Assembly: GCA_963817895.1 (NCBI GenBank)
Contig: CAWFQB010000003.1
Location: 672,001 to 736,000 of the forward strand
DNA from: an uncultured Chthonomonadaceae bacterium
GTDB taxonomy: Bacteria; Armatimonadota; Chthonomonadetes; Chthonomonadales; Chthonomonadaceae
Direction: 5' to 3'
Length of the DNA: 64,000 nucleotides
In this document: in pieces, positions 43,155-64,000 of the stretch
Numbering within the stretch: the first letter of the stretch is position 1
How the letters are laid out: each line of letters opens with the position of its first letter
Notes under the pieces: generated by a model
The model's input: only the letters and a program-made list of their open reading frames with translations
Told to the model about the DNA's origin: nothing
Database searches by the model: none
Position numbers and translations under genes: made by a program

Positions 43155-46100
43155 TCACCTGTCCAGCATTCGCGCAAAGACGGCATCCACAGACGGCAAC
43201 AGCGCAGCCGTTTCGCGCAGGGCGGCCAGCATTTTGCGGTAGTGGGTGATCTCGGCTTCGGTCAGAACGCGGCCCGCGCGGTCATCCAGCCACTTGAACG
43301 CGGGCTGATACCCGCCCACGCGAAACTCCCACGCTTCGGGCGGCACGTTGTCGAAATACTCCACAGCATTGAGCCACACGCGGCCCGGCTTGCCGTCCGG
43401 CGTGGGCGGAACGTAGCGTTTGGCAACATTGCGCTTTTCCACAACATGATCGCCGCCGACCGGGTACGCGATGCCGGTGGGCGTCAGGGCGGGCAATTCC
43501 AGCAGGTGCAGGGCCACGAGTTTCGCGCCGAGTGTGGCGAGTTCGTGGAACGTGTCGGCGTCGGGCGGCAGAGGCAGGCGCGGAAAGTCAATTTTCAGGA
43601 ACGGGGCGTAGCGCGTCCGGTACGTGGGCGCGTGGAACACGGCGTAGGCGTAATGAAACACGTCTTCGGGCGTCGGCGCGGTTCCAACCCGTTCCGCCAA
43701 CGCCGCCACAAACGCCGGGTTCAGGTTCGCCCGTCGTTCCTCATGCGCTTCCAACGAACCCTCTTTTGGGTACAGCCATAGTGGAAACGCGAAATTTCCT
43801 TCTTTCATGGAAACTGTATGTAGTACAGATAATGTATCAGTACAGAATACATGGTCGAAATCTGCGTTTACTTCTACTCTACGAGCCGTAATCAAAGCCA
43901 AATTAGGTTTCAGCATGTGCTGCATTAACGGGTATCTATGGTCGCCTCTTTCAATCATAACCTTATCGTAGAACACATAACGTACATCGAATGGCCTGAA
44001 CAGTACAGGTTTGACGGTGTTCTCAACATTGCCGAGTTTAGGCTTTGCCTGCGTGAAATTCCAATACGGCGACTGCTTGATTTCAGTACTTTACGATTGC
44101 ATCCTCTGGTGACAAGCGCACTATGTCTTTGAATTTTTGCGTGAGCGCTTCTCGGTCTATATCAACCAACAAGTAGTCCTTACGAGTTGCTATACCCCAA
44201 CCATTGACCGGAAATACATCCGTAATTGATTAGCCTTGCTCGTATTCTTCGCGGAGTTCTTGTTCCTGTGGGCGGAATAGGTAGAACGGCACATTGGGTA
44301 CAAGCGGCTGCCAATCTACGTTGTTCAAGTTGGAAGCGCGGAGCAATTCATATTTGCTTTTGCGCGTACCATACACATCGGCGTGATGAATTACGGCGTC
44401 CGGTGACGCGCCAACCCTTTCGGCGCGACGGATGAACACGGCAATAGCGACACCCTGCATGATGTCGAACACGTTTTCGTCTTTGCCGCCGTCAAGGGCG
44501 CGTTCCTTCTTTTTGCTGTTGCCGTGCAGGTCGAGCAGGTAGATTTCATCGAACGTTCGCATCAGGCTGCGGCGCATCCCCCGGAACGTCGGATTGTCCA
44601 GATACGAGTTGTCCGTGATGAAGGCGACAATGCCCTGCCCGCTGCGCTCGATCTCATACTGCGCGAACCGGAGGAACTTCACATAATCGTTTTGCAGCCA
44701 CTTCGGGTTCTTTTCGCCAAGCGGCTGCCCGTCTACCGTATAGTAGTCCTGCATCAGATTGCCGATGAACGTGAATTTGCCGCTCGCGTCCTTGCTTGGG
44801 TTGTCGGACTTGCCGAAATACGGCGGATTGCCAAGCACGACGAGTATCTTTTCCTGATCGCGCACCTTCACGGCTTCGCGTATCTCCTTACTCAGCACGT
44901 CCGCGCCCGGCAGGTTGATCTGTTCGGGAGCCTTGTTTATCATCGTGTCGGCAAGATAGACGGGCAGGCGTTCGCCGTCGGGCAAACCCGCGTTCAGTTC
45001 CGACAGCAGTTGCCGCAATTTGATGTGCGCGAGGGTGTACGCGGTGGGCAGGCGCTCGAAACCGTAGAAGTGCTTTGCCAGATGGTTTTTGCGCTCTGTC
45101 CGGCCAGTACGCCGCGTTCTCGCCTTGCATCATCGTCTCATACGCCTGCCGGTACGCCCGCGCCAGAAACGTCGCCGTTCCCGTTGCCGGGTCGAGCAGG
45201 CGAACGCTGTCGTCCGCCAATCCCTCCGTTTTGCCGAAATCCCGTTTCAGCACATCGTCAACCGCCCGAACAATGAAGTCCACAACCGGGTCGGGCGTAT
45301 AGTACACGCCCGCCCGTTCGCGCAGGCCGGGGTCATACGCGGCCAGAAACGGCTCGTAAAAGTGGACAAGCGGATCGTCGAACGCGCTTTTATGCTTGGT
45401 CGCCGTTTCCCGCGTTGACGCTTCCAGGTCGGAGCAGATGCCGTCCACAATCCAGTGGAATTCATCGGGCAGGCTGCCGAACTCGCTGAACTGCATCAGG
45501 GTACGGATGGGCGGCACGGCTTTGGGGATGGCGTGGAGGGCGGTTTCGCGGTCGAAAATCAGGCTTGTGGTATTGAGCCACGCGAGAAACAGGCCATACG
45601 TGAACGTCTGCGCGTACACGTCCGCGAACTTCTCTTTGTCAATGCCGTCGAAAAGCGTCTGCTTGTACAACTCCCAATACACATGCAGCGGCAACTCGTC
45701 CTGTGACAGCATGGCGTCGGCAGCCACGCGCAGGAAGCGGGCGCGGCGGGCAAGCTGCTCGGGCAATGTCTTCGGGCGAATTGGCGGCAGGGCGTACTCG
45801 CGTCGAGGAACTGTTCCAGCAGGTCGCGCAGTTCCTCCAATGCGGAAGCGGAAACCGTAATCGCGCCGTGTTCGGGCGGTTCGGGCAGGCGCGCGGTTTT
45901 CACAAGCTGCCCGTCCAGAAACAGGCGAAACTCAAAGTGGTTGGTCAGCAGGAAGTTGTGCAGGTTCAGCCGGAAACGCTCGTTCTGCTCTTTAGCGTGG
46001 CCTTTCAACTGCGTCAGCGGCGTATTGAGCGCTTCCGCTTCCACATACCCGATCACTCTTGCCCCGTTCGTCACCTCATAATCGGGACGCCCGAACGTAA

Positions 46101-46272
46101 TTTTCTTCGCTTCGCCGGTAAACTCCGCCGTTTTGCCGAGCAGGTCTTTCGCGTCCCGCAAAAACGCGCCCAGAAAGTCCCGGTACGACAATTCTTCCGT
46201 GCTGTTGGACAAAGCGGCTTGTTTGCGAATGGCGGTCAAATAGGTAAGGGCAAGCGATTCGAGCGTGGACAT
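43155..46272 (-). pseudogene. Single-chain type IIG / ISP-like restriction-modification enzyme without helicase, disrupted
   Basis: GRPDY..YVEAE, LLTN..EF; FYEPFLAAYDP..R...GVYYTP, LLDPATGTATF, GNPPY, NDYVKF, DLHGN, DENVFDI, FRPFD, IDFPRLP, VGGYQ. One in-frame TAA at 44230-44232 plus indels. Confidence 0.8.
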
Positions 46273-46463: not shown

Positions 46464-49400
46464 CTATTTTGTCTTCTTCCCGTTTTTGGGAGCGTCGTTG
46501 GAACCGTCTTTGCCGTTGTCGGTTTCAGCCGGTTCGATCAGGACTTGTTGCAGTTCATTGCCCGTTTGCGCGGCGGCAATCACTTCCTGTTCCACTTCGT
46601 CTGTGTCCACGAGCCGCTCAATGGTGACGACTTTATCGCCCGTGTTCAGGTTCATCAGGATCACGCCCTGCGTTTTACGGCTTTGCGTCTCCTTAATTTC
46701 GCGGATAGTGGTTTGAATGGTGACGCCCTTTTCGCTGATAATCATCAGTTTGTCATCTTCATGCACAATCGCCGCCGCAATCACCGGCCCCGTTTTGGTC
46801 GTTACATCCATCGTTTTCAGGCCGCGTCCGCCGCGTCCCTGACGGGTATACTTGCTCAGGTCGGTGCGCTTGCCCAGCCCGTTTTCACTGACCACAAGCA
46901 ACTGCTGCCGCGTGTCCGGGGCAATCACATCCATCGTGACCACATTATCGTCAAGGTCGCGTGTGCCGGGAGCGCGCATTTCAATGCCCCTGACGCCGCC
47001 CGCCGCCCGTCCCCGCGTGGGCGTGTCGGCTTCGGCGAAGCGAATGGACATACCTTTTCGCGTGACCAGAACCACATCCTGCAAACCGTCCGTATGCTTC
47101 ACCCAGTTGAGATTATCGCCGGTTTCCAGGTCGAAACAGTTCAGCCCGTTGGCGCGCAGGTTGGCGAACTCGGAAAGGGACGTGCGCTTGATTTCGCCGT
47201 ATTCCGTCGCCATGAGCAGGAAGCCATCGCCCTGCATGTTCTTCATCGGCAGAATGGCCGTTATCTGATCGCCCGGCTCCAGTTGTATCAGGTTATTGAT
47301 ATGCTGTCCGCGCGCCTGTCGGCTTGTGGCCGCCACCTCGTAGGCTTTCAGGCGGTACACCCGTCCCCGATTGGTGAAGAACAGAATGTAGTGCGTCGTG
47401 GTCGCCACAAACAGGTGCGCGAGGCTGTCCTCGTCCTTCAGGTTGGCTGCCGCCACGCCCCTGCCGCCGCGCTTTTGAGTCCGGTAGGTGTCCATCGGCA
47501 CGCGCTTGATATAGCCGTCGCGGGAAATGGTCACGAGCGTCTGCTCTTCGGGAACCAAATCCTCTTCGGTGATCTCGTCGGCTTCGAGGGGCAGGATGCG
47601 CGTCCGCCGCTCATCGCCGTACTTGTCGCGCAGCGCTTTCAGTTCGTCCTTGATGAGTTTGACCACGCGGGCCGGCGTCACGAGAATGTCTTCCAGTCGC
47701 GCGATCTCTTTGAGCAGGTTTTTGTACTCGTCTTCGATCTTCTGCGCTTCCAGTTGCGCGATCTGGCGCAACTGCATGTTCAGAATCGCTTCGGCCTGTA
47801 TCTGCGTCAATCCGAACCGCGCCACCATTTCCGTACGCGCCGTTTCGCTGTTCGCCGCGCGCCGGATGAGGGCGATAATCTCGTCCAGAAAGTTGAGCGC
47901 GATTTGCAAGCCTTCGCGGATGTGCGCGGCCTGCTTCGCCCGCTGAAGTTCGTAGCGGGTTCGGCGGGCGATCACTTCCTTGCGGTGCGCGACATGCAGG
48001 TTGATGATTTGCGCCAGATTGAGCATCTTGGGCTGGCCGTTGACGAGGGCCAGCATGATGATGCCGAACGTCTGGCGCAGTGCCGTATGCTTGAGCAGGT
48101 AGTTGACGATGCGCTTGGGCAGCACGTCCCGGCGCAGCTCAATGACCATTCTCATGCCGTGCTTGTCGGAAAAGTCGTTGACATCCGTGATGCCGTCAAT
48201 CTTCTTTTCTTTGGCAAGTCCGGCAATGGTTTTCACGAGCATCGCCTTGTTGACCTGATAGGGCAGTTCGGTCACGACAATGGCGTTTTTGCCCCCGTCC
48301 ATCGGCTCGATCTGCAATTGCGCCTGCATGATAACGCGCCCGCGCCCGGTGCGATAGGCTTCCTTCGCGCCCTTCGTGCCTAAAATCAGAGCGGCAGTGG
48401 GGAAGTCGGGAGCCGGAATGAACTTCATCAGGTCGTCGGGCGTGGCCTCGGGATGATCCAGTAAATACAGGTGCGCATCCACCACTTCGCGCAGGTTGTG
48501 CGGCGGCATACTGGTGGACATTCCCACCGCGATGCCTTCGCCGCCGTTGCACAAGAAGTTGGGGAACTTGCCCGGCAACACTATCGGCTCGCGCTTGGAC
48601 TGGTCGTAGTTGGGCATGTAGTCTACCGTCTCGCGCTCGATGTCTTCCAGCATCTCGACGGCGAGCGGCGTCATGCGGCACTCCGTATAGCGGTAGGCCG
48701 CAGGCGGATCGCCATCAACACTGCCCCAATTCCCTTGAGGGTCAACAAGGGGATAGCGGAGGCTGAAATCCTGCGCCATGCGAACCATCGTGCCGTAAAT
48801 CGCGCTGTCGCCGTGCGGGTGATACGAACCCATGCAGTTGTGTACCAACATGCCGTTGGCGACAAACTCATGGTCGCGGGCCACCTGAATGTCATAGGTG
48901 ACATCTTCTCCGGCGTCCCGTATCGCTTTCACCTGACTGAAGGTGATTCCGCTTTCCGTTAATTGCTGCACGAAATGCGCGTAGTCCGAACCGATGGCTT
49001 GCAGTTTATTGCGAATGTTCAGCTTCACCAGCGTGGAAAAATAAACCTCAAATGTTTGCGCCAAATCTTTGTGACAGCGCAGTTTGACGCCGTTCTCGTG
49101 CTTCAGTCCGGCGCGAACTTTCTGACCGGAAGCGCCCATGTACCAGCCGCCGCCGAGATGTTTGGCTTGGAACTCCGCGATAATCTTCTGTCCGAGATAG
49201 GGAATGTGCTGCCCGCGTTCCGCCGTGAAACGGTTTGTTGTCGCATGGGAATGCAGACGCCTTCGCTTCTCCGCGTGTGCCAGATCGAGATGCTCTGCCG
49301 CCCGCTGGAACGATAAACTGTAAACTTCCAGAACGTGGTTTGCATAGCGGCCATACACCGGCTTATCGCCAACGCGTCCCTCAACCGGCGCATACGTATA

Positions 49401-50450
49401 AAGGTGGCTGTGGATGTTCAAGCTATGAAGCAGAACTTGCGTCTGGCGAATGAACGTTTCGGAAATACTGGTGAAAACCAGCGTGTTATCTTCCTTGTTA
49501 ATGGAACCGTCGCCATCCACAAAGCCCGACAGGAACGCCCACGCAACGCTTTTGGGCGAACGGAAGACGGCCTCGGGTATGGCGATGTTATGCGCGTACT
49601 TGCCCCGTATGCCGAAAGCGTTGAGCAATTGGTTATTAAGTTTCGAGTTGTTGATGCGCAGGCAATGCAAACCCGCTTTGTCGGTAATGTTCGACTTTTC
49701 GCCAAACTGTTCGAGCAGAATGGTTTGCAGTTTCTGAATGATTTCCAGACTCCCGCAGGAAAAGCCGATGCGGTCATAACCCCGTCGCGCGTCACGGCAG
49801 ACCCAGTCATCCGCAAGGAAAAAGCCGAGCAGATACGCGATGTCTTCGTTTAGCGTGACGCCATCCACATCAATGTAATCGGCAATTTGGGAGGCAGCGG
49901 AACGGGAAATGATGTACTCGCCGGGAGTCAGTTCATTCGCCTGTTTCCACGCCACCTGTAATTCCGGCGTGAGAACCTTGAACTTCTGATCCACTGTGCA
50001 GACGTTCTTCATGCCGCTTGCCAGTTCCACTTCGAGCAGGGATTGACGCGGCATGATGTAGGTTTGCGTGATGGGACAAACGCCATTTTGGGTGTAAACC
50101 TCATCTCCGATTTGCAAATCTTCGATAGGCAGCAAGCCTTTGGGCGTGGATACGAGCGTACCCTCGACGAAACATGTCCCGACGACCTGCGCCGACTTGA
50201 CGCGGGCGCTTCCCGGCCCCAAACCTAAGTCGCGCATGGTGGCGAGGATGCGACGTTGCACGGGTTTGAAGCCGTCGCGCACATCGGGAAGGGCGCGCGA
50301 AATCAGCGTGGAAACGGCGTAGCCCAGATACGAGCGGCGCAGTTCCTGCTCTATGTCTATGAGCATGGAACCGCCCGCGCCATCGCTGCTGCCGTCGTCC
50401 GGGGAACGTTCCGCGCGGGGCGGTATGGGAGGAAGATTGGTATCTGCCAA
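46464..50450 (-). CDS. gyrA: DNA gyrase subunit A containing an intein
   Basis: [29 protein letters not shown], GyrA-box QKRGGRG, beta-pinwheel CTD. Confidence 0.97.
48837..50174 (-). mobile_element. Intein with LAGLIDADG homing endonuclease (446 aa)
   Basis: [12 protein letters not shown]...[28 protein letters not shown]; motifs [10 protein letters not shown] and [10 protein letters not shown]. Confidence 0.95.
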
Positions 50451-54796: not shown

Positions 54797-55111
54797 ATGG
54801 CTGACGAGATGAGCAAGCGGGAAGAGATCGAGGAAATTCTGACGGACGCTTATGGCGAGTACGAGCAGATGAGCGCGTGGGAAAACACTTTTTTGGAGCA
54901 GGTAGAAACGCCATTCAAGGCCAATCTGATGGGCAGTCCGGTGGAGGTCCTCGGCTTTCAGGTCGGCGCAAGCGACACGCTGCAATGTGAGGTGAAAGCG
55001 AAAGGCAAACAGCGCTGGATTGCCGTAGAAGATTTGGACGAGGAGGGTCTGCCGGAAGATGCCGCGCATTATCTCGACCTGTATCAATCGTGGCTGGAAG
55101 GCGGCTACTGA
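54797..55111 (+). CDS. Small acidic CcbP-like (calcium-binding family) protein
   Basis: EEILTDAYGEYEQMSAW..FL.....PF.A; C-terminal Y..W. Confidence 0.6.
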   Translation: MADEMSKREEIEEILTDAYGEYEQMSAWENTFLEQVETPFKANLMGSPVEVLGFQVGASDTLQCEVKAKGKQRWIAVEDLDEEGLPEDAAHYLDLYQSWLEGGY

Positions 55112-55166
55112 TCCTCTTGACGAATGCGCCGGAACTTGCTACGCGAAAAAGATGAAGGATGAAATC

Positions 55167-55673
55167 ATGGCAATCATACCTGAGATGCCCTTGACTCCTG
55201 AAAACGCTTATGAACATGCAATGAGAATTATAGAACAGAAATGGCTGGACGCTGGAGTCACACAGGAAGAGATTGATCAAAGCGAAGAATTCACAGATAT
55301 TTTTGATCGTCTGGTAGGATCAGGTTACGCGCGGGAGATTATCTATGCGGCATGGGACGCGGATTATACCGGGTATGATAATCCGGCCCTCGCCTTATAC
55401 CTGCGCCTGCTTGCTATCGCCGAACGCGCCCTGCCCGCCACCGATCCCATGCTGTCACAAATTCTGTTCAGCCTTGCGAAGCAGTATCAGGCAAGCGGCA
55501 ATCCGGCGGCTGCCGAACCGCTCTATGCCCGCGCCCTGACCCTGCGAGAACAAACGTTCGGCATACAACATCCCTTAACCATACAAGCGCGTGAGGCTTA
55601 TACGGCCTTGCTGTGTGCCGCAAATAGATGCGACGAGGCTGATAAACTGCAAACCATGCTCGTGCCTGCCTGA
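55167..55673 (+). CDS. TPR-repeat protein
   Basis: LAKQYQASGNPAAAEPLYARALTLREQTFGIQHP. Confidence 0.8.
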   Translation: MAIIPEMPLTPENAYEHAMRIIEQKWLDAGVTQEEIDQSEEFTDIFDRLVGSGYAREIIYAAWDADYTGYDNPALALYLRLLAIAERALPATDPMLSQILFSLAKQYQASGNPAAAEPLYARALTLREQTFGIQHPLTIQAREAYTALLCAANRCDEADKLQTMLVPA

Positions 55674-55790: not shown

Positions 55791-58118
55791 ATGCAACCGG
55801 GCAGCAAACTGGGAAAATACGAAATCTTACAATGGTTAGGTGGTGGCGCGGCAGGCACAGTCTGGCTTGCTAAAGATACGACGCTGAACAAAAATGTTGC
55901 CCTGAAAACCATTGAAACGCACCCAGACAACCGCCAGGAAACGCTGAAAGAAGCGCAAATTCTGGATCGTCTGAATCATCCTGCTCCGCATCCTCACATT
56001 GTTCGCTTCCACACCGCTAGCATTGAACCTCCTTACGTTGTTCTTGATATGGAGTACATCAAAGGACAAACGTTGAGCAGACTGCTGGAAGCGGAAGAGT
56101 CTCTTTCTCTTGAACGCTCCATAGAAATCGCTGCGCATGTTCTTGACGCGCTTGCCTTTGCCCGAACTAAGCACATTTGTCACCGAGATATCAAACCTGC
56201 GAACATTCTTATTGGAACTGATGGTTGCGTAATGCTGACGGATTTCGGTATTGCTGACCACTTGGACACTAAATCTGTGATGGTTGGAGGCGGATCCCCG
56301 GCCTACATGGCGCCTGAAGTATTTGCGCCAACCCCGCAGATGGATTATCAGTCGGATGTTTGGTCAGTTGGAGTTGTGCTGTATGAGATGTTAAGCGGAC
56401 AGCGACCCTTCAAACCATCAAAAGGCACACCTGAATGTACAACACAGGCACGTTGGCAGGAGGCAATTACGACACAAACCCCAAGGCCGATTACGACATT
56501 CGTGCTGGACGCCCCGCCTGCTCTGCAAATCGTGCTGAACCGCGCTCTGGCTGTCAAGAAGAGTGAGCGATTTCCAAGTGCGCAGGAGTTCTATGACACG
56601 CTCGTTCGAACTCGTCTTTACAATCCGCCTCTGACAAAAGAGGAGATGGAACGCGAACGGCATTTCCGTCAAGTGTTTGCGTCCATCGAGAAATGGATGG
56701 ATAATGCCGTACAACCAGTGCAGGTAATAGGCTTTAAGGATGTCGTTCGTGAGTACGCGAGGCAAAATCCGGCTTGGTCTGATACAGATGAGCTGCTGCG
56801 ACTTGCGAACATACGCAACCGCTTCTCTCACGAACTTACGCAGGAGAATGAGCGTCGCCTATTGCCCACACTTGCCGATATTGCTTTGATTGAGCGTATC
56901 AATACGGCTCTTGTTTCAACCTTGCCGGAACGCTCCCCGTCCACGACAACTACGGTCAACCCCATTACCACCTGCAAGCCAAAACCGCTAGAAGTGAAAG
57001 CGAACCTTGTCAATGAGTCTGCACAGCAGCCTGTCGCCTCCGCCGCAACACTGCCAGTTCAACCGGTGAACAACGATAACAGCGAGCCAGAGATAGCGAA
57101 AGTTGACCATGTGGCTGTTTCAGTACAAATAGCCGCTGAACAATCCAGCAGGAGCAAGCAAACATCTCAACGACAGGCGAAATCACCAGAAAGAGTAGAA
57201 CAGACTGCCAAGCCACAGCCCGTTCGTGACCGCAAACCGTTGAGCCAACCGAAGGCTGTACGGACGAGATTACGACGCTTCCTGTTCAGTACGTCCATTC
57301 TCTGTACCTTCTGCGCACTTGTCTGGTTTACAATGTCTATGGTTGCATCAAAGCAGCGACAACATCGGTTCGACCAGATTCTTGCAGATGCGGTCAAACG
57401 CAATGATGTTAACGGTGTGCGAGATGCGCTTCATCAGGGAGCCAACCCCAATGGTCTTGATAAAGAGGGCCAGTCCATCTTCGGAATCTCACAAGAAAGT
57501 TACGACATAAGTGTTGATCAGGCAAACTCTACTATGGAGGCCGCGGGAGATACAAAAAGATATGAGTATTATAATTCTGCAATCATGCAAGCTATGCTTG
57601 ATGCACGAGCCGATGTCAGCAAATCCACCTTCGACGGAACACTCCCGTTTATAACCTCAGTACGTTTCGAATCTCCGGGAACAGTTCAATGCTTTCTGAA
57701 TCATGGTTGTAGGATCAATTCAAGGGGCAATACTTCTTTCGTAAACTCCGATGTAGACAAAGGGGAAATGATTTCCGGGCTAACTGCAGTACATGCGGCG
57801 ACTGTACGCAAGGATACTGCCGTTCTCAAACTACTGCTTGAAAATAACGTATATATCAATGTTCAGAATAAATTAGATAAAAATTATATAAAATTCCATT
57901 GTGGGTATAATGTTGAATACCAGAAGTTGCCAGATGGAGTGACCGCGCTTATGCTAGCTGCCGGGAACAAAAGAAACACCGCCCTGAAAATGTTGCTTGG
58001 ATATGGCGCGGATACTAACCTCGTGGACAACAAAGGCCGAACTGCACTGACTTATGCCAAACTGGCCCATAACGACATTGGGGTTCAATTGCTAAAAAAC
58101 GCGGGAGCAAGACTGTGA
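55791..58118 (+). CDS. Ser/Thr kinase - HEPN-like - TM - ankyrin repeat protein
   Basis: LGGGAAGTV, VALK, HRDIKPANIL, TDFG, GSPAYMAPE; RNRFSH; TM FLFSTSILCTFCALVWFTM; ankyrin repeats GLTAVHAA, GVTALMLAA, GRTALTYA. Confidence 0.9.
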   Translation: MQPGSKLGKYEILQWLGGGAAGTVWLAKDTTLNKNVALKTIETHPDNRQETLKEAQILDRLNHPAPHPHIVRFHTASIEPPYVVLDMEYIKGQTLSRLLEAEESLSLERSIEIAAHVLDALAFARTKHICHRDIKPANILIGTDGCVMLTDFGIADHLDTKSVMVGGGSPAYMAPEVFAPTPQMDYQSDVWSVGVVLYEMLSGQRPFKPSKGTPECTTQARWQEAITTQTPRPITTFVLDAPPALQIVLNRALAVKKSERFPSAQEFYDTLVRTRLYNPPLTKEEMERERHFRQVFASIEKWMDNAVQPVQVIGFKDVVREYARQNPAWSDTDELLRLANIRNRFSHELTQENERRLLPTLADIALIERINTALVSTLPERSPSTTTTVNPITTCKPKPLEVKANLVNESAQQPVASAATLPVQPVNNDNSEPEIAKVDHVAVSVQIAAEQSSRSKQTSQRQAKSPERVEQTAKPQPVRDRKPLSQPKAVRTRLRRFLFSTSILCTFCALVWFTMSMVASKQRQHRFDQILADAVKRNDVNGVRDALHQGANPNGLDKEGQSIFGISQESYDISVDQANSTMEAAGDTKRYEYYNSAIMQAMLDARADVSKSTFDGTLPFITSVRFESPGTVQCFLNHGCRINSRGNTSFVNSDVDKGEMISGLTAVHAATVRKDTAVLKLLLENNVYINVQNKLDKNYIKFHCGYNVEYQKLPDGVTALMLAAGNKRNTALKMLLGYGADTNLVDNKGRTALTYAKLAHNDIGVQLLKNAGARL

Positions 58119-58432
58119 TTTCCGGTTCATCCGAAATGGAACCAACCATATCAACCATACAGGCAACGCTTCTTGATTTGTTGCCGAGTAATCCGTCTGC
58201 ATTGTTGTACGAGAAGCAGGCGCGCTACAAAGGTGGAAGCCGCTTGTTTACGCAGAAGGTAAATGTACCGGATGAAAGTTTGTTTCAGCGTCTATGCCAT
58301 GAAGCGAGCAAAGGCAGCGAGATCAAAATAACTGTCACAACGGAATGGCGCGAAGATCATAGTGTCGCTTACGTTTCAGATGCCGAACTACTGCAAACGG
58401 CTACTTGCGAAGCCCTTGTAAGCGCGGCGTAA
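58115..58432 (+). CDS. Small hypothetical protein overlapping the kinase stop
   Basis: GTGA overlap, 105-aa ORF. Confidence 0.55.
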   Translation: MISGSSEMEPTISTIQATLLDLLPSNPSALLYEKQARYKGGSRLFTQKVNVPDESLFQRLCHEASKGSEIKITVTTEWREDHSVAYVSDAELLQTATCEALVSAA

Positions 58433-58464: not shown

Positions 58465-58800
58465 TCAGGTGACGGCAAATTCGGTGAACTTGCGTTTTGC
58501 GGGGTGATGAAATCCTAAGACGATCTGTTCCTGTGGGATGCCGGCTTCCAGCAGTTCATCTACAATCCCGTTTTTTGTGCCGTCGTGCTGCACCCATAGT
58601 TTGTTGTCCCGAAAGTCAATATGGATTACGCTGCCGTGTACGCGCCGCACTCCGTCCCAACCGGTGTAGAACAGGATGTAGTGACCATGTTCGTCATCGA
58701 ACACGGTTTCCGCAGTAACATTGGCATAGGCGGGAATGAAGTCCGCATATTCTTGAATGATGCGCTTCACAACCGCGCGATAATTTTCTACTCGATCCAT
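58465..58800 (-). CDS. xisI: XisI-family protein
   Basis: FDDEHGHY...GW...RVHG..IHID....KLWVQHDGT, GIP..QIVLGF. Confidence 0.92.
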   Translation of the reverse strand: MDRVENYRAVVKRIIQEYADFIPAYANVTAETVFDDEHGHYILFYTGWDGVRRVHGSVIHIDFRDNKLWVQHDGTKNGIVDELLEAGIPQEQIVLGFHHPAKRKFTEFAVT

Positions 58801-59204
58801 CTTACGATGTTCTCTCCTTCGGCATCAAACAGCAGCAAGCGAATCATTGTTGCGGCAACCAGATCGCGCGCATCCGCCGTATTGAAAACGGCCTCGTAAG
58901 TGTCGGCGGAAACGCATAGAAACAGGGTACGTTCCGGCTCCTTGCGCTGAATAAGAAAGCGGTACAGCGTGAATTGACCGAGCGCGCGTTCCAAATCCGT
59001 CATAGGAGATTTGCCGAGAAAACTTTTGATCTCGACAGCAATTTTGCGCCCCTCCTTCTCGGCCCCGATAGGCGCTTCTGCTCCCAAATCAACGTACAGG
59101 TCTTCCTCGCCGAATTTAAGTGGATAGGGGTCATGCGTAATTACCCACCCCTCGGCTTCCAGCGCTTGTCGGACGATAGCATGGTAGGTATCTTTACGCG
59201 GCAA
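58788..59204 (-). CDS. xisH: XisH-family PD-(D/E)XK protein
   Basis: KD.YH..V..AL..EGW.ITHDP, VDLGAE, IAVEIKSF, ALGQF..Y. Confidence 0.92.
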   Translation of the reverse strand: MPRKDTYHAIVRQALEAEGWVITHDPYPLKFGEEDLYVDLGAEAPIGAEKEGRKIAVEIKSFLGKSPMTDLERALGQFTLYRFLIQRKEPERTLFLCVSADTYEAVFNTADARDLVAATMIRLLLFDAEGENIVRWIE

Positions 59205-61523: not shown

Positions 61524-61656
61524 GTAGCCTGTAAAAATTATCATCCACAATCAGGCCGAACTCCCCGCCCCGAATATTTGTTTCCAAATACAGGAACAAC
61601 GTATAGAATAGCCGAATGATGGGAGCGTGAAGCGTAAGCATGGGCAGGAGGCTGCG

Positions 61657-62427
61657 GTGACGAACGAGGCAAAAACGGCGTTGTTGGTGATGTGCGACAT
61701 CAGCGGCTATACACAGTTCATGGTGTCGCATCGGGAGTCGCTGGCGCACGGGCAAATTATCATTACGCAACTGATACAAACGCTGCTGCGCGAAGCCAAA
61801 ATGCCGCTTGTCGTCGCCAAACTGGAAGGGGACGCGATTTTCCTGTACTGCGTCCTTGCGCCCGATATGCCCGCGCTTCAGGTTCGCGATGTGCTGGCAA
61901 AGATGAGCGGTTTCTTCGTCGCGTTCGACGCCAAGTTGTTGGAACTGGCGCAATCCAATATCTGCCCCTGCGAAGCGTGTCGCCATACGGAAGCCCTCCG
62001 CCTGAAAATTCTGCTGCATGTCGGAACCGCGCTGATGCACCGCATCGGGCGCTTCACCGAACTGGCGGGAACCGACGTGATTTTAATTCATCGCCTGCTG
62101 AAGAACTCTCTGGAAGCGAAGCAGTACCTGCTGCTGACCGAAACCGCCCGGAATGTGGCCGGACTGGAAGCCGCGCCCTGCGATTATGAGGGCGTGGAGG
62201 AGTACGACGCGCTGGGCGAAGTCAATATTTATGCGTACTTCCCACCCCTGAATTTCGCGCCACAAATGCAGCCACTCCCAAAGCGCAATTACGCCACGCT
62301 ATGGTATAAAACAAAGAACATCCTCCTGAAAATACTGTATACGCGGCTGACATTTTTGCATTTGAAACGCCGTCCCTTCTTCCGCAATCTGGCTTCGAAA
62401 GAAACGCGCAGCCAAACGAATTCCTAA
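61657..62427 (+). CDS. DUF2652 protein (class III nucleotide cyclase-like)
   Basis: CDISGYTQF, KLEGDAIF, CPCEAC, LKILLHVG, DVILIHRLLKN. Confidence 0.85.
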   Translation: MTNEAKTALLVMCDISGYTQFMVSHRESLAHGQIIITQLIQTLLREAKMPLVVAKLEGDAIFLYCVLAPDMPALQVRDVLAKMSGFFVAFDAKLLELAQSNICPCEACRHTEALRLKILLHVGTALMHRIGRFTELAGTDVILIHRLLKNSLEAKQYLLLTETARNVAGLEAAPCDYEGVEEYDALGEVNIYAYFPPLNFAPQMQPLPKRNYATLWYKTKNILLKILYTRLTFLHLKRRPFFRNLASKETRSQTNS

Positions 62428-62527
62428 ATGTATGTTGCTTCTAGTAGTCGGTCCGTCAAAAACCATTTTTCGGCTCAACAGGCAGGTACAATAGAGATAG
62501 TCTTTGCAGTAGAATTAGGAGGCTTCA

Positions 62528-62785
62528 ATGACGCAAATCGCTATCAAACAGGCGGAAACGCAACTGACTCAGCTGGTACAGGCGGCTCGGCGTGGTGAAG
62601 ATATTGTTCTCATGGAGAACGATACACCGGTAGCCCGTCTGGTATCTATTGCCGAACCCGAATCCAAGCCCAAACCGCGCCCGCAGTTTGGCAGCGGCAA
62701 GGGATTGATTCTCTACATGGCTCCTGACTTCGATGCCCCAATTGGAGAATGTGCCGTTGCGCCCACTTCCTGTGAAGCGGAATGA
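62528..62785 (+). CDS. Phd/YefM-family antitoxin
   Basis: IKQAETQLTQLVQAARRGEDIVL....PVARLV; FGSGKG...MAPDFDAP. Confidence 0.85.
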   Translation: MTQIAIKQAETQLTQLVQAARRGEDIVLMENDTPVARLVSIAEPESKPKPRPQFGSGKGLILYMAPDFDAPIGECAVAPTSCEAE

Positions 62786-63102
62786 GCTATACTGAGCAAA
62801 GGTTATGTGAAATGAACATAGATATAAAGTCAATTGTTGAGCAATGCTCAATGCTCCGTTTGCAAATCAACAAAGGTGAGCGACACCGAATAATGCGTAA
62901 TGGCGTGAGGCGAGGAAGCCTTTGGGTGACGCCTGGAACCAACTGCTACTGTGTTTGCGTCACTGGTGAAACTGAGGCAATTTTGTACGATTTTCTACGC
63001 AGCGATTTCGGGGCTGAAACTGGCGAAGATCAAGGAAAGAAGTATTGGAATGTCATCAGCATCAAGGATGTTGATAAAATCATTCGGCAATTCGACAAAT
63101 AG
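62782..63102 (+). CDS. AT-richer hypothetical protein coupled to the antitoxin
   Basis: ATGA overlap, 106 aa, no PIN motif. Confidence 0.5.
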   Translation: MSYTEQRLCEMNIDIKSIVEQCSMLRLQINKGERHRIMRNGVRRGSLWVTPGTNCYCVCVTGETEAILYDFLRSDFGAETGEDQGKKYWNVISIKDVDKIIRQFDK

Positions 63103-63264
63103 ACGCGCAGTAACTATGCGCGACGGTCCCAATATACGATAAAGGAGAACACGGTTCTTTGCATCCCGGTTTTGGCAATAATGGTTTGTGCTGTCAGAGC
63201 AATGAGCGTGAAGGCGCGGCAGTGTGTGTTATACTATTCAGCATACACGCAGGAGGTACAAACA

Positions 63265-63561
63265 ATGAATGAGACGGCGTATCGGACATGGCAGGCGCTG
63301 CATGACCGATGGGCGCAGGGCGAAGCGCTGACCCCGGAAGAGCAAGAAGTGTATGAGGCGGGTTGCGCCGAACTGGACGCCGAAGAGGTTTTGCCAGGAA
63401 GCCTAAAGAACTTACAGGCTATTCATGCCAAAGCGAAGGAGTTGGACGCGCAGATTGCCCGCGCGCAGTCAGAATCCGTCGCGCTGCGGACGCAAATCGC
63501 GGAAACAGAAACCCGTTTAAGTGAAGCGACCCGCCGCAGGCTAGGCCTTTCCACCCACTGA
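63265..63561 (+). CDS. Small helical/coiled-coil protein coupled to an HNH nuclease
   Basis: AGGAGG SD; TGATG overlap with the HNH gene. Confidence 0.75.
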   Translation: MNETAYRTWQALHDRWAQGEALTPEEQEVYEAGCAELDAEEVLPGSLKNLQAIHAKAKELDAQIARAQSESVALRTQIAETETRLSEATRRRLGLSTH

Positions 63562-64000
63562 TGGCCCACCCAAAACATGAACAAGTACGGCAACGCTACA
63601 ATTTTTGCTGCGGCTATTGCGGCGTGTCTGAGACAAGCAGCGGCGGTGAACTGACGATTGACCATTTCGGCCCTGTGTCCAAAAACGGCGACGATAGTGA
63701 CGCTAATCTTGTCTATGCCTGTAGCCGATGCAATCTGTTCAAGAGCGACTTCTTTCCTGACCCGGCAACTTCCGCGCCGGAACACCGCCTGCTGCATCCA
63801 CTTTTGGACAATACGGAATTGCATTTTCGGGAGGATGATTATGGACGCCTTCAGTCTTTGAGCGTCACCGGTTTATTCCACATCCGAAAACTGCGATTGA
63901 ACCGGCCTCAACTCGTGGATTACAGACTGATGAAGCAGGAAGAACGGCTATGGCAGGAGCGTATTCAGCATCTTGAGCGAATGCTCGGCGATGTAAATGT
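63561..64000 (+). CDS. HNH endonuclease (runs off window end)
   Basis: Manual translation: MAHPKHEQVRQRYNFCCGYCG...TIDHFGPVSKNG.D...NLVYACSRCNLFK...LLHP...LRLNRPQL. Confidence 0.9.
   Translation, partial: MAHPKHEQVRQRYNFCCGYCGVSETSSGGELTIDHFGPVSKNGDDSDANLVYACSRCNLFKSDFFPDPATSAPEHRLLHPLLDNTELHFREDDYGRLQSLSVTGLFHIRKLRLNRPQLVDYRLMKQEERLWQERIQHLERMLGDVN

Follow-up and report, generated by a model that had tools for sequence, protein, structure and literature searches.

A Hanks-type kinase fused to a probable HEPN domain in an uncultured Chthonomonadaceae bacterium

A gene for a protein here called P0001 was analysed in a 64,000-nucleotide stretch of the genome of an uncultured Chthonomonadaceae bacterium (assembly GCA_963817895.1, contig CAWFQB010000003.1, positions 672,001–736,000; this whole stretch is the window, and positions below are counted from its first letter). 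One continuous 775-residue frame without internal stop codons encodes an intact Ser/Thr kinase, a helical domain, a linker, a transmembrane (TM) helix and ankyrin repeats, all in the order that an initial annotation, made from the sequence alone, had described (Table 1). The middle domain is very probably a HEPN domain. P0001 may be a single-pass inner-membrane receptor kinase whose clustering and autophosphorylation are predicted to switch on the fused HEPN ribonuclease (RNase), a reading that we prefer tentatively. The kinase–HEPN family to which the protein belongs is rare but real; that this small bacterial family has independently evolved the logic of IRE1, with a receptor kinase paired by a signal, a fused HEPN RNase and interchangeable sensor tails, is a more doubtful possibility.

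The middle domain was modelled in AlphaFold2 as four helices with a pLDDT of 88.8. Its RNRFSH motif, found at the position first reported for it, occupies model positions 66–71 at the end of the third helix (H56–72). In a comparison with 48,161 solved chains, ranks 1–6 were HEPN-fold proteins (Z 10.1–8.0, root-mean-square deviation 2.8–3.8, 96–100 of 103 residues aligned), with 1wwp at the top (Z 10.1, r.m.s.d. 3.3, 97 aligned) and 8xdj, 1jog, 5yep, 1ylm and 7ae2 after it (Z 9.1–8.0). More HEPN entries stand at ranks 9, 18 and 20–22, sacsin, AF0298 and Csm6 are among the lower ranks, and the best Foldseek TM-scores (0.53–0.57) belong to HEPN toxins. The fold was assigned because HEPN entries are enriched at the top ranks and the motif is present. 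HEPN domains carry the published signature R-(N/D/H)-x3-H where helix 3 ends (Anantharaman et al., 2013, PMC3710099; this and the other cited sources were covered in part); P0001 has R-N-x3-H at the end of its third modelled helix, and E300 is the acidic residue of helix 2. The closest solved folds are HepT/DUF86 toxins of MNT-HEPN pairs (1wwp, 8xdj, 5yep, 7ae2 and 1ylm), which share 8–19% identity with the domain and whose first helix is unmatched. Of the early expectation of HEPN- or Swt1-like matches, the HEPN part is supported and the Swt1-like part is not. Across ten aligned members, weak sub-threshold Pfam matches were obtained to HEPN_RiboL-PSP (0.003), HepT-like (0.057) and NTase_sub_bind (0.12) and none to HEPN_Swt1; a match of P0001 to TPR_ANAPC2 (E 0.005, under the cut-off) was dismissed as a generic helical match.

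RNRFSH alone is weak evidence because R-x4-H is common by chance: it occurs in 922 of 4257 random 98-residue windows taken from the long six-frame open reading frames (ORFs) of the genome, spurious frames included, and R-N-x3-H in 37 of 4257. The motif takes its weight from conservation in homologs. The 82 domains collected were reduced to 52 by removing near-duplicates at 90%, and to 47 by setting aside P0001 and four motif-less sequences. In these 47 motif-bearing homologs, mostly HEPN-CBS proteins, the Arg, Asn and His are each present in 47/47, as the initial annotation would have it for Arg and His, and the position of E300 is Asp or Glu in 47/47. The domain of P0001 is only 26–35% identical to its homologs and keeps R342, N343, H347, E300, F315, W329 and P359.

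The kinase motifs of P0001 are intact: G-loop (aa 17–24), VALK (36–39), helix-C Glu (53–55), HRDIKPAN (131–138), DFG (151–153) and APE (174–176). Its best structural match is Mycobacterium tuberculosis PknB (Z 28.8, r.m.s.d. 2.4, 250 aligned), and the closest solved kinases by sequence and structure are PknB, StkP, PknE and PknA. A kinase tree of 58 rows was built from nine fusions, 29 core kinases of the bacterial family and, as outgroup, 20 of 80 GTDB kinases; it covers the core kinases of one family, those of other families and IRE1 not being included. All nine fused kinases cluster with the family-wide core kinase (support 99/96), which is present in 38 of the 41 genomes of the bacterial family; the branches are long and the inner order is unsure. 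Transfer from eukaryotes was rejected on the PknB-type matches and the grouping with bacterial core kinases.

A phmmer search with aa 283–380, unfiltered, against 1.84 billion representatives returned ten proteins at E ≤ 0.001: P0001, four kinases with the domain at the same position (P0003–P0006) and five proteins with the domain at the N-terminus, in four of which a CBS match follows (one of these under the cut-off). A profile search, in which 8000 candidates were scored, gave CBS in 34 of 35 matches; it missed P0003–P0006 and is not exhaustive for fusions. Within the class the domain was found in 5 of 68 genomes, this one included, and within the phylum in 24 of 401, namely this genome, two with a motif-less kinase fusion and 21 with loci of another kind; 20 of these 21 loci were scanned (CBS in 20/20), the remaining one being cut at a contig end. 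A first metagenome scan for the domain gave no match, and a scan for the motif gave four contigs, all P0003-like. Word-indexed protein searches with the single domain returned itself only or nothing, the ESM Atlas returned no match at 0.9 or more for the HEPN domain and generic kinases only for aa 1–380, and the domain was present in none of 80 loci among the matches listed in a GTDB locus scan, these loci being generic kinases.

Five proteins, P0001 and P0003–P0006, combine an intact kinase with the full HEPN motif, and the spacing from kinase subdomain XI to the HEPN Arg is 82–84 residues in 5/5. Their tails differ: P0001 has a TM helix and ankyrins, P0004 and P0006 have four or five TM segments, and P0003 and P0005 have none. 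The basic stretch before the first TM segment of P0004 resembles RTRLRR of P0001. A single branch of the domain tree (support 90, not starred) has all nine kinase-fused domains on the same side. Ankyrins, proposed at first as the sensor, are found in none of the eight other fusions (six scanned, two judged from sequence), and their role as a defining sensor is not supported. Because motif and spacing are kept and the tails are unrelated, the conserved unit is taken to be kinase–HEPN, and the ankyrin tail a local add-on. A search for the same architecture elsewhere therefore has a divided outcome: the kinase-then-HEPN order recurs, and the full four-part architecture is a singleton (one sequence, one contig).

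P0001 has one hydrophobic segment (aa 497–515), with six Lys or Arg among the 15 residues before it and three after. According to the positive-inside rule, basic residues flank the cytoplasmic side of a TM helix. We infer an N-in, C-out topology with the kinase and HEPN domain cytoplasmic and the ankyrins outside, probably in the periplasm because Omp85 genes are present in the genome; the initial placement of kinase and HEPN on one side and ankyrins on the other agrees with the TM position and charge. The genome has 79 ankyrin-like ORFs. A rough rule places a hydrophobic segment ahead of the first repeat in 24 of them, P0001 included, and the P0001 tail resembles the many stand-alone TM-anchored ankyrin proteins. 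No counterpart of the linker was found elsewhere in the genome. In such an ankyrin-rich genome P0001 might be a near-neutral product of recent domain shuffling, the full-length protein having no selected function, an explanation to which the singleton architecture, the ankyrin ORF counts and the broken copies on two of the four P0003-type contigs lend something. We regard it as very unlikely: the 775-codon frame is intact, no catalytic residue has been lost although the protein is strongly diverged, and the kinase–HEPN junction and basic pre-TM stretch are common to distant homologs. As a separate observation, many ankyrin ORFs of the genome have a membrane anchor at the N-terminus, and the first repeat after it is conserved.

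In the preferred reading, an outside signal would bind the periplasmic ankyrins and cluster P0001. PknB-type kinases pair and trans-autophosphorylate; the clustered kinases would do the same, and their pairing would join or license two HEPN domains to give a composite site. This site would cut RNA without metal, so that translation would be slowed or stopped and growth arrested, with either stress signalling or defence as the possible output. As the linker is long and flexible, the signal would pass by proximity and not by a rigid conformational relay. HEPN nucleases require two domains for cleavage (bioRxiv 10.1101/760058), and phage defence by the CBS-regulated HEPN protein DS-11 depends on its HEPN residues (PMC13092281), which shows that gating of a HEPN RNase by a fused sensor is possible. 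A dimer prediction for aa 1–379 gave scores of 0.25 and 0.22 against a mark of 0.42, which counts neither way. The protein may have been assembled from a PknB-type kinase native to the lineage and the RNase head of HEPN-CBS proteins; the kinase would then have taken over the role of the CBS pair as switch.

Several observations weigh against this reading. The structural Z values of 8–10 are below about 13, a level under which the tool warns that matches of helical bundles can be generic, and with the middle domain no Foldseek match reached E ≤ 0.001. The six best chains were aligned only from residues 17–34, their first 16–33 residues not being covered, and from these alignment ranges the canonical HEPN helix 1 seems to be missing in the model; the HEPN-CBS homologs start at the same point as the HEPN domain of P0001. 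The 47/47 count is partly circular because the search profile contains the motif; motif-less relatives were also retrieved by the searches behind it. P0001 has Ala at position 297 where 47/47 homologs, the four other motif-bearing fusions included, have Asn, and its branches are long in the domain and kinase trees (1.31 and 1.39). A low-complexity linker of 114 residues separates the HEPN domain from the membrane, and TM segments are lacking in two of the four other motif-bearing fusions, which means that gating across the membrane is not shared by the whole family. Four related fusions with degenerate kinase motifs have lost the HEPN motif and still keep the domain, which can therefore persist without catalysis. 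The main doubt about this copy is A297 together with the long branches, and P0003 and P0006 would be the safer choice for a test. The same two features, and the four relatives within the bacterial family that keep the domain without the motif, would also fit a genuine HEPN domain that is weak or dead in P0001 and acts as a dimerization or RNA-binding module, phosphorylation being the only output. This is somewhat unlikely, given that the conserved HEPN residues listed above are kept at such low identity and that the dead relatives lost the kinase and HEPN motifs together, both of which are intact in P0001.

On its sequence P0001 is an analogue and not a relative of IRE1 and RNase L; the likeness is attributed to convergence because each part of it is of bacterial origin and native to this lineage. 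Of the first description as an IRE1/RNase L-like module, the kinase-then-HEPN order stands; the kinase lineage, HEPN subfamily and sensor position differ from those of IRE1. Like P0001, IRE1 has a Ser/Thr kinase (motifs intact in P0001) followed directly by a HEPN-superfamily domain with R-N-x3-H, a single TM helix and a sensor across the membrane from the kinase. In IRE1 the lumenal sensor and TM helix are N-terminal of the kinase, whereas in P0001 the sensor is C-terminal and the only TM helix comes after the HEPN domain; unlike those of IRE1, the kinase is PknB-like and the HEPN domain HepT/DUF86-like. Pfam KEN (a family whose Pfam name we take to be Ribonuc_2-5A) is not among the 14 families matched by ten aligned domains at E ≤ 1. 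IRE1 and RNase L chains are absent from the 29 PDB sequences at E ≤ 10 in a domain profile search that gave nothing meaningful, and both proteins are absent from the best 50 structural rows for the HEPN model and for the kinase model, which leaves room for a shared fold. RNase L resembles P0001 in having ankyrins, a kinase fold and a HEPN-type domain, with kinase then HEPN. Its ankyrins are N-terminal, cytoplasmic and joined to a pseudokinase, whereas those of P0001 are C-terminal, beyond the TM helix, and the kinase motifs are intact; other members of the P0001 family, unlike RNase L, have no ankyrins. The ankyrins of RNase L bind the cytoplasmic messenger 2-5A, and those of P0001, if across the membrane as predicted, could not bind a messenger of this kind. 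The KEN domain is circularly permuted, helix 1 being absent at the N-terminus and carried at the C-terminus (PMC3710099); as in KEN, the HEPN domain of P0001 seems to begin at canonical helix 2, but it has no helix after helix 4.

The HEPN-CBS proteins are direct sequence homologs of the P0001 HEPN domain with the same R-N-x3-H, and P0001 has an N-terminal kinase in place of their C-terminal CBS pair as the presumed switch. A bacterial HEPN-CBS class is noted in section 15 of Anantharaman et al. (2013; PMC3710099), with gi 118580987 as an example that may belong to this same subfamily. DS-11 is, like P0001, a single protein with sensor and HEPN domain, and its catalytic residues are required (PMC13092281). 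Membership of P0001 in DS-11 was rejected: DS-11 has CBS and then a C-terminal Swt1-like HEPN domain (PMC13092281), and the NCBIfam model NF053863 does not match P0001; this model matches the HEPN-CBS homologs in their CBS part only. PknB and Stk1 share with P0001 the N-terminal Hanks kinase, a low-complexity linker, one TM helix and a C-terminal outside domain. By comparison with them P0001 has a HEPN domain after the kinase, has ankyrins instead of PASTA and is an accessory, not a core, gene; Pfam found no PASTA repeats in P0001, and NF033483 scored 196 bits against a cut-off of 450, in the kinase part only.

In the sections covered of PMC3710099, the kinase–KEN fusion is listed for eukaryotes only, KEN is without specific relationship to any prokaryotic HEPN family, and membrane-bound and CBS-fused bacterial HEPN RNases are predicted with no bacterial kinase fusion. 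The parts covered of PMC11090510 and PMC13581612 contain no kinase–HEPN fusion. No description of a bacterial kinase-then-HEPN fusion was found in the full-text literature searched; subscription journals, figures and the supplements of PMC3710099 could hold one. If the preferred reading is true, P0001 would be a convergent bacterial copy of the kinase–KEN design made from a PknB-type kinase and a HEPN-CBS head. In bacteria, Ser/Thr signalling would then feed straight into RNA decay, and such a kinase-gated RNase receptor would offer a living model for the origin of the kinase–KEN unit of IRE1 and RNase L. Residues 1–380 of P0001, or the more canonical P0003 and P0006, would serve as a small soluble construct for kinase gating of a HEPN RNase. 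The general weight is limited because the family is rare, with five motif-bearing members found. The analysis also singles out the N-terminal HEPN-CBS proteins, which are widespread and for the most part lack annotation, as candidates for RNases gated by a ligand.

Table 1. Positions of the kinase–HEPN gene, its parts and its neighbours in the window
Feature	Position	Strand	Details or basis
Gene for kinase–HEPN–linker–TM–ankyrin protein P0001	55791..58118	+	775-aa ORF
Hanks-type Ser/Thr kinase, PknB-like, aa 10–273	55818..56609	+	Pfam Pkinase, E 2e-50
HEPN-fold domain, aa 283–376, ~95 aa (very probable)	56637..56918	+	AlphaFold2, structural matches, homologs
A297 and E300, first modelled helix of HEPN domain	56679..56690	+	Homolog alignment
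RNRFSH motif, aa 342–347 (R342, N343, H347)	56814..56831	+	End of third modelled helix
Pro/Ser/Gln/Thr-rich juxtamembrane linker, aa 377–490	56919..57260	+	Composition
RTRLRR (aa 491–496) and single TM helix (aa 497–515)	57261..57335	+	Hydrophobicity, charge
Ankyrin-repeat region, about aa 527–775	57369..58115	+	Domain matches, E 3e-16
Small ORF, multicopy genus-level family	58115..58432	+	Paralogs in G000, G001 and G002
Upstream TPR gene, left flank of insertion site	55059..55673	+	Domain match, synteny
XisI and XisH genes, right flank, beside groEL	58465..59204	-	Syntenic in G001

The site was compared between this genome (G000) and two congeners, G001 and G002. In G001, groEL–xisH–xisI is followed by unrelated genes; in G002 the small ORF (71% identical) lies within about 75 bases after the TPR gene, with no kinase between. 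With the query used, no HEPN domain was found anywhere in the G001 and G002 assemblies (completeness 97% and 91%). The kinase–HEPN gene either entered a variable site as an accessory insertion or has been lost on two occasions. It was said at the outset to be richer in AT than core genes, and so it is: its GC content is 48.8%, and 47% at third codon positions (GC3), against a genome GC of 56.8% and a GC3 of 72–74% in gyrA and groEL. A promoter and terminator scan was at chance level (3 versus 2.9 and 3 versus 3.7). In two DNA sequencing runs (shares 0.05–0.06), matching contigs cover mainly the TPR gene and not the kinase–HEPN gene.

The small downstream ORF overlaps the stop of the kinase–HEPN gene by four bases, and to that extent the coupling initially described is real; a role as dedicated partner or inhibitor is not supported, as its family has three copies in G000, two in G001 and seven in G002. 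A role as antitoxin was rejected in view of this multicopy family and of its presence at the kinase-free G002 site. Nothing in Pfam, NCBIfam or PADLOC matches the ORF. No nucleotidyltransferase gene lies beside the kinase–HEPN gene. A dedicated antitoxin gene is not evident at the locus, as would also hold if the HEPN domain were a constitutively dimeric, active toxin held or released by kinase phosphorylation, in a one-chain toxin–antitoxin switch comparable to HepT, which a modifying enzyme neutralises; dimerization would then not act as the trigger. HepT-type toxins of MNT-HEPN pairs are indeed the nearest folds and P0003 and P0005 are soluble, TM-less members; the receptor-like layout of P0001 and the multi-TM tails of P0004 and P0006 point instead to a membrane signal input, and we consider the switch quite unlikely.

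A receptor that senses phage and causes abortive infection, as first suggested, would be a special case of the preferred reading. It agrees with the gene's sporadic occurrence, its low GC3 and its place of insertion, a variable site, and also with a constant effector unit with swapped tails. One of the HEPN-CBS genes is immediately followed by a gene for a Druantia DruE-like helicase, HEPN and PIN-like toxin genes adjoin a P0003-type gene, and a 233-residue protein, HEPN-CBS-like by eye, is a DefensePredictor prediction (supplement row, not validated). However, no recognised defence genes were found flanking the kinase–HEPN gene, PADLOC matches P0001 to generic kinase models only and matches 0/10 HEPN-CBS-family proteins, and DS-11 differs in having its domains in the reverse order and a HEPN domain of Swt1 type. 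In f6, a family other than that of P0001, 20 of the 27 genomes have one copy each of the HEPN-CBS gene, which at the locus checked adjoins a DNA-repair gene and an ATP-grasp gene, a distribution that looks like housekeeping. On these grounds the phage-sensing role, which would overlap with both the preferred reading and the toxin switch, is unlikely.

Some further observations concern relatives of P0001. The motif-less fusions (L002, L003, L004 and L027, in G034, G012, G025 and G003) consist of a pseudokinase, a motif-less HEPN domain and a C-terminal FGE-sulfatase-like domain, and these pseudokinase proteins span two genera of the bacterial family and four genomes. The two broken P0003-type copies, among four contigs, are L109 and L110; the breaks, judged by eye, are a kinase frameshift and an end just past the HEPN domain next to transposase-like fragments. 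At L112:5647–11173 the P0003-type gene stands beside a stand-alone HEPN gene and a PIN-like toxin pair (by eye), with SMI1/KNR4 genes and an RNA 2'-phosphotransferase (Tpt1/KptA) gene. The N-terminal HEPN and CBS-pair family (L006–L024, P0007–P0060) is widespread and annotated only as CBS protein or transcriptional regulator; its R-N-x3-H is invariant, and its members are candidate adenine-nucleotide-gated RNases distinct from DS-11. The member upstream of the DruE-like helicase gene (L025:1054–1761, in G084) has a methyltransferase-like gene just before it, by eye.

Others concern the locus and its surroundings. The small-ORF paralogs at G000 C1:932407–933262 and C13:12279–13171 each follow a similar unannotated gene of ~150–180 aa, as a two-gene module. 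At the same variable site in G002 (L155:1468–2847) there is, by eye, a fusion gene of a cyclase-like and an FGE-like part. About 10 kb from the kinase–HEPN gene, beyond gyrA, a type ISP restriction-modification gene (43155–46272, - strand) is split over four frames; this and other frameshifts, for example in the core kinase at G000 C5:2–1786, suggest indel errors in the assembly. The gyrA gene (46464–50450, - strand) carries an intein with a LAGLIDADG homing endonuclease, and beyond groES (61627–63998) the window holds accessory genes for DUF2652, a Phd-like antitoxin and an HNH endonuclease.

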